64,000 nucleotides of DNA from Felixounavirus LF82P5: the sequence record OZ035800.1; one strand, given 5' to 3'. The notes under the pieces are model-generated. The model ran no database searches and had not been told where the DNA came from. It saw only the letters and a list, made by a program, of their open reading frames with translations. Position 1 is the first letter of the stretch; each line of letters starts with the position of its first letter. The translations under genes and the position numbers were made by a program. Of the stretch, positions 27,162 to 28,861 are shown piece after piece.

Positions 27162-27287
27162 CAGATTTTATAGCTTATTTGGCAGATTTTTTATAAGGCT
27201 ACTGCCATCCTTCCATACTTTACCGAACATCACCCTACTGAACCCGACCCTACCTCACCCGACCCAACCGAACCGTACCGAGCACAG

Positions 27288-27326
27288 CCTTATTAAAAGA
27301 CCCTCTTTAAAGACCTTTTAAAAAGG
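27288..27326. repeat. 39-bp core repeat copy 1 (CCTTATTAAAAGACCCTCTTTAAAGACCTTTTAAAAAGG)
   Basis: Exact copy also at 27426-27464; near-palindromic arms; contains AAAGACC twice. Confidence 0.85.
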
Positions 27327-27425
27327 TAAGTCTCATTTTAATGTAGCTGAGACTAACTACCCATACCTCACCTTACCACGCCGAACAGCACCGGACTATA
27401 CCAGACCATGCCGAACATTGCCGAG

Positions 27426-27464
27426 CCTTATTAAAAGACCCTCTTTAAAGACCTTTTAAAAAGG
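27426..27464. repeat. 39-bp core repeat copy 2
   Basis: Identical to 27288-27326. Confidence 0.85.
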
Positions 27465-27480
27465 AGCCTCCGAAGAGGCT
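27458..27480 (-). terminator. Minus-strand rho-independent terminator after 146-aa gene
   Basis: On minus strand AGCCTC-TTCG-GAGGCT followed by CCTTTTT; same stem sequence as terminator at 44024. Confidence 0.6.
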
Positions 27481-27491
27481 ACCTAGTCAAC

Positions 27492-27932
27492 TTAGAAAGG
27501 TTTTCTACGTTGCTTGTTAATGTTAGCTTTCATAGCAGCTAAATGGTTTTGCTGTTCAATTAGTCGTGAACGTTCTTGATGGCTAAGTACCATAGTGTTC
27601 ACATTCTCAATCGCTTGAGTGGCTTGCTTTAAAGCACGACCAATCTTACCAGACATTTTACGTTTTGCAATAGTTGCTTGATGCTTAGGTTCAACCACAC
27701 GATAACCAACACCCATTGAAGCAACCAGATAAATCTTCTCTTCTTTAAGAAGCTTCTCAATAAACTTCTCAAGTCGATTTAAGCGTGTAAGCGCATAAGC
27801 CTTCATTTCATCTTCGTACTTAACAATGTCACCTTGATAAGTTGGCTTCACAATACCTAAGAAGGTGTCCATCTCAGAATGTGATACAGTGTCACCGTAA
27901 CTAAACTTTGCTGCTAATGCTTTTGTATTCAT
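27492..27932 (-). CDS. Hypothetical protein (repeat-flanked cassette gene 2)
   Basis: 146 aa, basic coiled-coil C-terminus; start 2 nt after upstream stop; followed by minus-strand terminator. Confidence 0.5.
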   Translation of the reverse strand: MNTKALAAKFSYGDTVSHSEMDTFLGIVKPTYQGDIVKYEDEMKAYALTRLNRLEKFIEKLLKEEKIYLVASMGVGYRVVEPKHQATIAKRKMSGKIGRALKQATQAIENVNTMVLSHQERSRLIEQQNHLAAMKANINKQRRKPF

Positions 27933-27934
27933 AA

Positions 27935-28522
27935 TTAAACGTTACCTTCTGAAATAACTTCTACAGAAAAACGACCAAAGCGTGGACGCCAATCACCTAC
28001 ACCACAAAGGTTGCCAGCATTTTCCAGAACCATCAGAAGTTCCTCTCTGGTGATTTGCTCTTCATCGAACATCAAACCAAACTCTACAGACCAGTCACGG
28101 AAGATTGGACGGTAACTCATAACTCGTGCTGTACCAATCTTAACAGACTTAGCATAGATAAAGTCTGGATTCTTAGCAAGTTCTTGTGGGTTTGCTGGAC
28201 AGTTCTTGATAGTCATTGGGAAGACTACATCTGTCAGCATAATGGCTCGGTCAATTACCTTACCAAGTTTGTTGAGCTTTGCACCAGACTTGATACAAGC
28301 CTCAATCATCTCACCGTTCATAACAAAACCTAACTGCTCATCGTAGTAACAAGAAGTTACCAGTTGGCTTTCTGCTAAGAGCGCATAGTCTTCGTCAGTC
28401 TTTTTACGTTTACTGGACAGAGACTTGTGATATTTTGTCAGAGGGTTTAATGGGTCTGACAGTGTATCGTTATGGCTCAGGAAAGGACGAGTACCAGTGA
28501 TTTTGATATTTAACAGTTTCAT
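27935..28522 (-). CDS. Hypothetical protein (repeat-flanked cassette gene 1)
   Basis: 195 aa from ATG 28522 with GGAG RBS (track start 28537 is GTG); no recognisable motifs. Confidence 0.5.
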
Positions 28523-28616
28523 AGCATTTAGCTCCACACTTTAGTTGATTGTTAAGTTGTTTGTAAAGAACCCTCAACAGAAGACTCTTTAGAAACTTGG
28601 TAGATTTTTAACGTGC

Positions 28617-28861
28617 ATACTACCATCCACCCATACCGTGCCACACCACACCGGACCGTACCATTCCCAACCCTACTACACCAGACCTTATTAAAAGACC
28701 CTCTCCAAAGACCTTTTAAAAAGGTAAGTCTCATTTTAATGTAGCTGAGACTAACTACCCATACATTACCGCACCATATTATACCCTACCCCACCATACT
28801 TCACTGCACCGAGCCACGCATTACATCACTTAAAAACCCTTTTCAAAGACTCTTAAGTGAT
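28617..28861. repeat. Repeat region B: CA-rich tracts + core copy 3 + hairpin + degenerate inverted-repeat copy
   Basis: Core at 28686-28724 (2 mismatches), hairpin 28725-28758 identical to region A copy, 9-bp inverted repeat ATCACTTAA..TTAAGTGAT at 28825-28861, period about 139 bp. Confidence 0.8.
28686..28724. repeat. 39-bp core repeat copy 3 (2 mismatches)
   Basis: CCTTATTAAAAGACCCTCTCCAAAGACCTTTTAAAAAGG. Confidence 0.85.

Follow-up and report, generated by a model that had tools for sequence, protein, structure and literature searches.

A very probable type II VIPR locus of the SUSP1 clade in the Felix O1-like phage LF82P5

What does an array of conserved repeats encode when it surrounds two genes without recognisable motifs? 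The question is raised by a locus in a 64,000-nucleotide stretch (the window) of Felixounavirus LF82P5, sequence record OZ035800.1, where an original prediction made from the letters alone described repeated units, each with a CA-rich tract, a 39-bp core and a hairpin, on both sides of a two-gene cassette. The analysis described here assigns the locus, with high confidence, to the type II VIPR (Viral Interference Programmable Repeat) systems of the SUSP1 clade, here residing in a Felix O1-like phage. Such systems are phage-borne relatives of CRISPR, and this one is already known: a near-identical locus of phage SUSP1 has been described (bioRxiv 10.64898/2026.04.26.720920).

That preprint gives the components of VIPR as Vipr, a RAMP protein, Vap, an accessory protein, and vrRNAs, which consist of 9–16 YNNGG repeats followed by a structured 3′ tail. 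The model locus is that of SUSP1, whose four vrRNAs of ~100 nt co-purify with Vipr. Double-stranded DNA is reported to be bound where the NN dinucleotides of the guide stand one skipped base apart, and the outcome is programmable transcriptional repression, enhanced by Vap1, with natural targets in a satellite phage (bioRxiv 10.64898/2026.04.26.720920). By transfer of this published mechanism to LF82P5, Vipr would bind the vrRNA, the GGY triplets being held by the protein. The NN dinucleotides would pair with double-stranded DNA bearing the same dinucleotides with one base skipped between them, and this binding would repress transcription, an effect that Vap1 would enhance.

A VIPR locus is recognised by a small (~20 kDa), single-RRM RAMP protein with a G-rich loop encoded outside any CRISPR-cas context, a vap gene in the same operon, GGY-NN vrRNAs flanking vipr, a pseudoknot tail of ~40 nt, and guides that match competing mobile elements with a skip of one base. 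These attributes, as far as sequence reveals them, are present in the window, the last of them for three of the four guides. The repeats and both cassette genes lie on the minus strand, with two units upstream and two downstream of the vipr–vap1 pair. In the order of transcription, the features are:

28893–28920, minus strand: sigma-70-like promoter ahead of the entire locus, TTGACA-N16-TATACT, agreeing with the consensus at 11/12 positions
28824–28862, minus strand: core stem-loop of type 2, CATCACTTAA...TTAAGTGATG, with variant arms and the same loop, preceding vrRNA-U1
28727–28825, minus strand: vrRNA-U1, 13 GGY-NN pentamers (28761–28825) and a 3′ pseudoknot tail (28727–28760)
28686–28724, minus strand: core stem-loop of type 1 with 2 mismatches, the 39-bp core of the original prediction
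28599–28687, minus strand: vrRNA-U2, 11 pentamers (28633–28687) and a terminal-type pseudoknot tail (28599–28632)
28565–28590, minus strand: arm-less copy of the core loop motif, AAAGAGTCTTCTGTTGAGGGTTCTTT, ending ahead of vipr at a distance of ~45 nt from its start codon
27935–28522, minus strand: vipr, a 195-aa RAMP protein 97% identical to SUSP1 Vipr, predicted to be the RNA-guided DNA-binding effector
27492–27932, minus strand: vap1, a 146-aa VIPR accessory protein 99% identical to SUSP1 Vap1
27458–27480, minus strand: intrinsic terminator after vap1, AGCCTCTTCGGAGGCT then CCTTTTT, the T-run being the 5′ arm of the next core
27426–27464, minus strand: core stem-loop of type 1, exact copy
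27329–27427, minus strand: vrRNA-D1, 13 pentamers (27363–27427) and a pseudoknot tail (27329–27362)
27288–27326, minus strand: core stem-loop of type 1, exact copy
27181–27289, minus strand: vrRNA-D2, 15 pentamers (27215–27289) and a terminal-type pseudoknot tail (27181–27214)

The four repeat units start at 27227, 27365, 28625 and 28763, with a start-to-start spacing of 138 nt. The CA-rich tract of the original prediction is real, but its periodicity had been missed: on the coding strand, each tract resolves into 11–15 pentamers of the form GGY-NN with a perfect 5-nt period, in which GGY is conserved and NN is hypervariable. When the window is scanned for AC recurring every 5 nt, the four tracts are the only places found. 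For comparison, the homologous region was taken from ~45 related phages, yielding 74 distinct tracts and the consensus [G 77%/T 15%/A 8%][G 98%][T 86%/C 11%][N][N]. The third position is T or C in 97% of pentamers and never A or G, the first is never C, and NN is unconstrained, varying strongly between phages while GGY stays fixed. The tracts are 10–18 pentamers long and differ by whole pentamers only, and the register is unbroken in all 74.

Each tract is closed by a tail of ~34 nt. Compensatory changes in two interleaved helices, a pseudoknot, distinguish the four versions of the tail from one another. Pairing holds in 91.8% of cells, and in 9 of 11 pairs both sides have changed, while partners slid by 1–3 columns give 29–37% pairing. 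The internal hairpin is one stem (stem 2) of this conserved pseudoknot, and its arms, AATCGGA/TTCGATT, covary among the relatives. An Rfam scan of the region returned sub-threshold noise only, with no match to a CRISPR or other family. As judged from sequence, each unit encodes a predicted RNA of ~90–110 nt, made up of 11–15 GGY-NN pentamers and a conserved pseudoknot tail.

The hairpins, with the CCTTTTT that follows them, had been taken for possible tandem intrinsic terminators. Three such sites do exist in the window, one after vap1 and one directly after each of the two internal hairpins on the minus strand, but the homologous hairpin of the relatives often lacks the T-run. About one third of the internal hairpins in relatives are followed by the variant (type 2) core without a T-run; the T-run after an internal hairpin is present only where the next core is of type 1 and thus does not define the hairpin. 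The terminator reading holds only in part: the units fall short of an array of rho-independent terminators, in which a U-run would directly follow a GC-rich hairpin in every unit, and the earlier judgement that their conservation goes beyond the needs of termination is borne out.

The core itself is as originally described, with its copies, their mismatches, the imperfectly inverted arms and the two AAAGACC copies; no such match arises in shuffles of the window. It forms a 13-bp stem with a conserved loop, GTCTT-N6-GGGT, and precedes each tract. This loop motif occurs 4 times in the 64 kb against 0.39 expected, and all occurrences are at this locus, so the cores are locus-specific elements and not terminators spread over the genome. 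The arms of the type 1 and type 2 cores covary, with 92.9% of cells paired and 6 of 13 pairs changed on both sides, compared with 36–63% paired for slid partners. The core stem-loop could be a loading signal, a processing signal or a Vap1 site, and the T-run of the type 1 core may, as a secondary role, terminate each vrRNA.

The cassette genes are closely coupled, the vap1 open reading frame (ORF) beginning 3 nt past the vipr stop. The original prediction saw no recognisable motifs in either product, and a Pfam search indeed gives no match for either, while PHROGs matches are to families of unknown function only (phrog_4652 for Vipr). The structure prediction and remote homology search that it had proposed were nevertheless informative for the 195-aa protein, which emerges as a RAMP protein resembling Cas7/Csm3 and not as an ordinary conserved phage protein. 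Homologues of Vipr number in the hundreds (~190 aa, 36–51% identity) and occur in phages, prophages and some Actinobacteria. An AlphaFold2 model built from 39 homologues has a predicted local distance difference test (pLDDT) score of 94, and the top ~40 Foldseek matches of this model to the PDB are Csm3/Cas7 and Cas6 proteins (E ~1e-4, probability 1.0, template modelling (TM) score 0.43–0.54). A conserved G-rich loop, G-x-G-x5-F-G-R-F, is present, and residues G170, G174, R179, G183 and F185 are invariant in the 39 homologues. On the basis of this model, Vipr is predicted to be a relative of Cas7/Csm3, a small RAMP protein with a single domain. Vap1 has 235 distant relatives, and a gene of similar size lies downstream of distant Vipr homologues; its AlphaFold2 model (pLDDT 96) gives weak, winged-helix-like Foldseek matches to the PDB, all with E > 0.4 and none significant. 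No cas1, cas2 or other cas gene was found among the ORFs neighbouring the cassette.

A distant Vipr homologue of 192 aa is also encoded on a Rhodococcus globerulus chromosome (L051:4719-6106), in a compact cluster of three genes (92, 192 and 176 aa); the 10 kb inspected around it show no clear sign of a prophage.

The pentamer tracts and the RAMP gene are linked well beyond the Felix O1-like phages. Runs of seven GGTNN units in succession were found at no fewer than 120 loci in IMG/VR, many of which, among those listed, belong to unrelated phages and carry up to 18 tracts per array in noncoding DNA. In at least 40 of the listed loci, a Vipr homologue lies directly beside the tract array on the same strand; therefore, the pentamer RNA and the RAMP protein form one system. 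This association was found independently of the VIPR preprint. Several features of individual IMG/VR loci were also observed. In four unrelated phages (L150, L072, L061, L104), 12–18 vrRNA-like tracts stand immediately downstream of the Vipr homologue, and in L053, L058 and L071 a tract leads directly into a Shine–Dalgarno sequence and start codon. Near-perfect short runs of GGTWA or GGTAC occur beside iteron-like clusters of direct repeats, often inside long ORFs (L074, L083, L084, L095, L098, L100, L101, L103, L108, L112, L124). The examined flanks of these loci contain no Vipr homologue, and the runs may represent a different VIPR type or an origin-like element.

Thirty E. coli chromosomes contain unannotated DNA that matches positions 28599 to 28686 of the window, where vrRNA-U2 has its tail and tract. 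In three examples (L173:13147-25216, L175 and L176), the matching DNA is part of a ~12 kb element inserted in yecE, a DUF72 gene; strains EC12 and JML285 are among the carriers of this element, and further copies are found in IMG/VR (L178-L181, L183). Its genes for tape measure, baseplate and serine recombinase identify the element as a phage satellite, which also contains ~2.6 kb of unannotated DNA. One vrRNA-like unit with a terminal-type tail is present on it, and no vipr or vap homologue was found there.

Guides were compared with eight copies of the satellite according to the published rule of one skipped base between successive NN dinucleotides, mismatches being allowed. The best matches of the four window guides are:

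Guide D2: 24–28/30, satellite serine recombinase gene, skipped base at codon position 3
Guide D1: 20–22/26, small hypothetical gene of the satellite, skipped base at codon position 3
Guide U1: 23/26, tape-measure gene in the IMG/VR copies of the same satellite family, skipped base at codon position 3
Guide U2: 17/22 at best, satellite tape-measure gene out of codon phase, skipped base at codon position 1

For U1, D1 and D2 alike, the skipped base thus falls on the codon wobble position, and other skips and shuffled guides score only 17–22. The guides of vipr-carrying relatives behave in the same manner: 44 of 62 reach at least 80% against the eight satellite copies at skip 1, compared with 3–5 at skip 0, 2 or 3, and a match of at least 90% is attained by 30 guides at skip 1 and by none at the other skips. 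No self-target of the guides was found in the window. No match in IMG/VR was obtained with exact patterns of the full-length D1 and D2 targets, nor with a pattern of 10 dinucleotides from U2; the D1 and D2 targets emerged only when mismatches were allowed on satellite sequences from E. coli genomes. These matches suggest that the phage uses VIPR to silence a satellite that parasitises it. Of the roles originally proposed for the cassette and its repeats, a part in conflict is retained; a recombination site, an anti-defence regulator or a replication site does not describe the mechanism, as the units are guide-RNA genes, whose products would load onto the RAMP protein encoded between them.

The search of related genomes that had been suggested, for the core and for variable gene content, showed the cassette to be present or absent inside the array, in agreement with the accessory nature first ascribed to it. 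Felix O1 and several relatives have neither cassette gene and keep only 1–2 units. Cassette-bearing phages have 2–3 units upstream and 1–3 downstream, total copy number ranges from 1 to 6, and the cassette, where present, is always inside the array. At least 80% of a query that included the cassette was covered in 89 of 230 matching phage records. The cassette is 97–99% identical between phages whose flanking ligase genes are 88–95% identical, including SUSP1 of another genus, Suspvirus. Recombination between units could delete the cassette and leave orphan units behind. The GGY fraction is lower in the guides of vipr-less phages (0.68 versus 0.77, Fisher p = 0.018), and of their 13 guides, 7 match the satellite to at least 80% and 1 to at least 90%; weaker GGY and satellite matching fit relics of cassette loss. 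Alternatively, the orphan units, and likewise the single vrRNA of the satellite, may be used in trans with the Vipr of a co-infecting phage. It is possible, albeit doubtful, that the core stem-loop (together with its arm-less copy) and the orphan vrRNAs are functional parts of the system that go beyond the account given in the available part of the preprint.

Orphan vrRNA units were observed in Felix O1 (L003:2890-3171) as well as in L025, L027, L031, L032, L037, L040, L041 and L045, in each case between the ligase gene and a gene of 127 aa.

Among known systems, the closest is that of SUSP1 itself. The two loci sit at corresponding places in their genomes, flanked by the DNA ligase gene on one side and the 127-aa gene or its homologue on the other, and they share the vrRNA design of a GGY-NN tract with a pseudoknot tail and the same kind of satellite targets. 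They differ in the genus of the phage (Suspvirus versus Felixounavirus) and in the array, which is 1 + 3 in SUSP1 and 2 upstream + 2 downstream in LF82P5; all four guides are different. Class 1 CRISPR–Cas systems, in which Cas7/Csm3 assembles on crRNA, resemble the locus in having a RAMP fold with a G-rich loop, a protein placed periodically along the guide RNA, and a variable guide capped by a conserved structured handle. In contrast, the VIPR locus has no cas1/cas2, repeat-spacer array or other cas genes, its period is 5 nt rather than 6, and its guide information is not continuous, two bases out of five being read and one base of the DNA skipped. The outcome for this VIPR type, as described in the preprint, is repression and not cleavage (bioRxiv 10.64898/2026.04.26.720920). 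The locus is thus not a CRISPR–Cas system: it has two genes only, and its variable parts are phase-locked GGY-NN pentamers and not contiguous spacers.

The promoter-early stem-loop elements (PeSLs) of T4-like phages are modules of an early promoter and a stem-loop scattered over hyperplastic regions (PMC2839356, PMC4122927). They have in common with the VIPR units that conserved intergenic repeats surround accessory genes which vary among close relatives, and recombination between repeats is a plausible route to this variation. In contrast to PeSLs, the VIPR units are confined to one locus, lack a good sigma-70 promoter and encode guide RNAs; the sole sigma-70-like match inside them is weak (9/12, 27424-27395). 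They are not regarded as PeSL-type elements.

TRAP sites in Bacillus trp leaders consist of (G/U)AG triplets with 2–3-nt spacers and are bound by an 11-mer beta-wheel. The pentamer tracts are similar in having ~11 conserved triplets with 2 unconstrained bases between them, the first position of the triplet being the least constrained. However, the triplet is GGY and not GAG, the binder is a RAMP protein, and the spacer bases carry the specificity.

Four alternative explanations of the units were weighed against the VIPR assignment. The least improbable, although still given little credence, is that they are tandem intrinsic terminators or regulatory hairpins that insulate an accessory operon. 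A canonical terminator does follow vap1, and CCTTTTT follows both internal hairpins of the window. However, the covarying hairpin of relatives precedes a type 2 core without any T-run and is stem 2 of the pseudoknot, and termination leaves unexplained both the 10–18 phase-locked GGY triplets and the linkage to the RAMP gene in unrelated phages. It is very hard to sustain that repeats acting primarily as recombination substrates, as PeSLs do in T4-like phages, mobilise the two-gene cassette. The presence or absence of the cassette among close relatives, always inside the array, the variation of unit number from 1 to 6, and a cassette more conserved than the neighbouring ligase gene, even across genera, are all in keeping with recombination. 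Yet this accounts for the evolution of the locus and not for the function of the units, which are RNA genes by structure and target content and contain the single weak promoter match mentioned above.

An equally minimal chance is assigned to the idea of a replication origin or recombination hot spot created by R-loops or G-quadruplexes in the G-rich tracts that follow a strong promoter. The locus does lie between the DNA ligase and DNA polymerase genes, among other genes of replication and nucleotide metabolism, its non-template strand is G-rich, and some unrelated IMG/VR contigs have iteron-like repeats next to their pentamer runs. Position-specific constraint, however, favours base-specific recognition over an effect of composition; the GC skew merely tracks the direction of transcription and gene orientation, and NN content that matches a satellite at one specific spacing is not expected of an origin. 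Finally, the tracts might bind a TRAP-like ring protein that controls an attenuator without any DNA targeting, with GTAG/CTAC and AGTCTCA/TGAGACT as alternative antiterminator and terminator stems. The triplets with 2-nt spacers in 11–15 copies, the lax first position, and the overlap of GTAG/CTAC with the stronger hairpin are compatible with this scheme, but both pairings covary and can coexist as a pseudoknot, the partner is a RAMP protein and not a TRAP-like ring, and the NN dinucleotides match foreign DNA, which makes attenuation exceedingly improbable. Before the RAMP result, several ideas had already been dropped: a plus-strand Rho rut site, an SD-like ribosome sponge (SD, Shine–Dalgarno), tRNA 3′-end pairing and a primase site cluster, as well as a G-quadruplex/R-loop origin, a Chi-like/RecA hot spot, an RfaH ops-like element and a TRAP-like attenuator.

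Several points weigh against the VIPR assignment. The preprint, dated June 2026, precedes peer review, and vrRNA expression, binding and repression in LF82P5 would hold by transfer from the 97–99% identical SUSP1 system. The fold match between Vipr and Cas7 is moderate, Vap1 has only the weak winged-helix-like matches, and the core stem-loop has no place in the VIPR model as published in the available part of the preprint. Guide U2 is without a convincing target, and the best matches of U1, D1 and D2, at 85–93%, are imperfect in the eight satellite copies compared.

The remaining features concern the setting of the locus. The window is from a Felixounavirus (Felix O1-like, Ounavirinae) that matches wV8 and the E. 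coli O157 typing phages best, at 95% identity. The locus is embedded in a minus-strand gene block that includes thymidylate synthase, dihydrofolate reductase, DNA ligase and DNA polymerase. The promoter at 28893–28920 is kept in Felix O1 and SUSP1 and, to judge from its sequence and position, likely marks the start of a transcript that comprises the upstream vrRNAs and vipr–vap1. An inverted repeat, GGTGAGTA...TACTCACC (28866-28905), overlaps its −10 hexamer and is likewise kept in Felix O1 and SUSP1. At the other end of the locus, a 19-nt inverted repeat, AAATAAGCTATAACACCTG / CAGATTTTATAGCTTATTT (27134-27180), surrounds the −35 hexamer of a sigma-70-like promoter; the gene served by this promoter lies downstream and encodes the 127-aa protein, which has a signal peptide. 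The repeat may act as an operator or, for the last vrRNA, as a terminator.

A hydrophobic ORF of 48 aa (MFSTVILFILVVFVLSYVASKLL...) lies at 28927-29073 on the minus strand, between the ligase gene and the VIPR promoter, and the annotation of UAB_Phi87 has an ORF of 48 aa immediately after its ligase gene. Directly downstream of the DNA polymerase gene, an ORF of 171 aa occupies 31286-31801 on the minus strand; at this position, an HNH/homing endonuclease is annotated in bumzen and SUSP1, and no gene is annotated in wV8. The genome papers of Felix O1, wV8 and UAB_Phi87 do not discuss the repeats. Existing annotations label them 'DR_4' in wV8 and, without support, 'possible binding site of StbAB' in KhF3. 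A packaging or terminal role was rejected because the terminal repeats of UAB_Phi87 map elsewhere.

Since the SUSP1 model system is 97–99% identical, the LF82P5 window adds little to the discovery of VIPR, which represents a second, CRISPR-independent route to RNA-guided DNA recognition and a proposed ancestor of the CRISPR RAMP effectors. The one-base-skip rule is, however, independently replicated here on the guides of LF82P5 and its relatives. VIPR is common in the Felix O1-like phages that are used for typing and biocontrol, and phages acquire or lose it as a cassette that lies within its own array of guides. If the orphan vrRNAs serve in trans, they would be guide-only freeloaders. Because the guides can be read from sequence, the satellite that a given phage fights becomes predictable.

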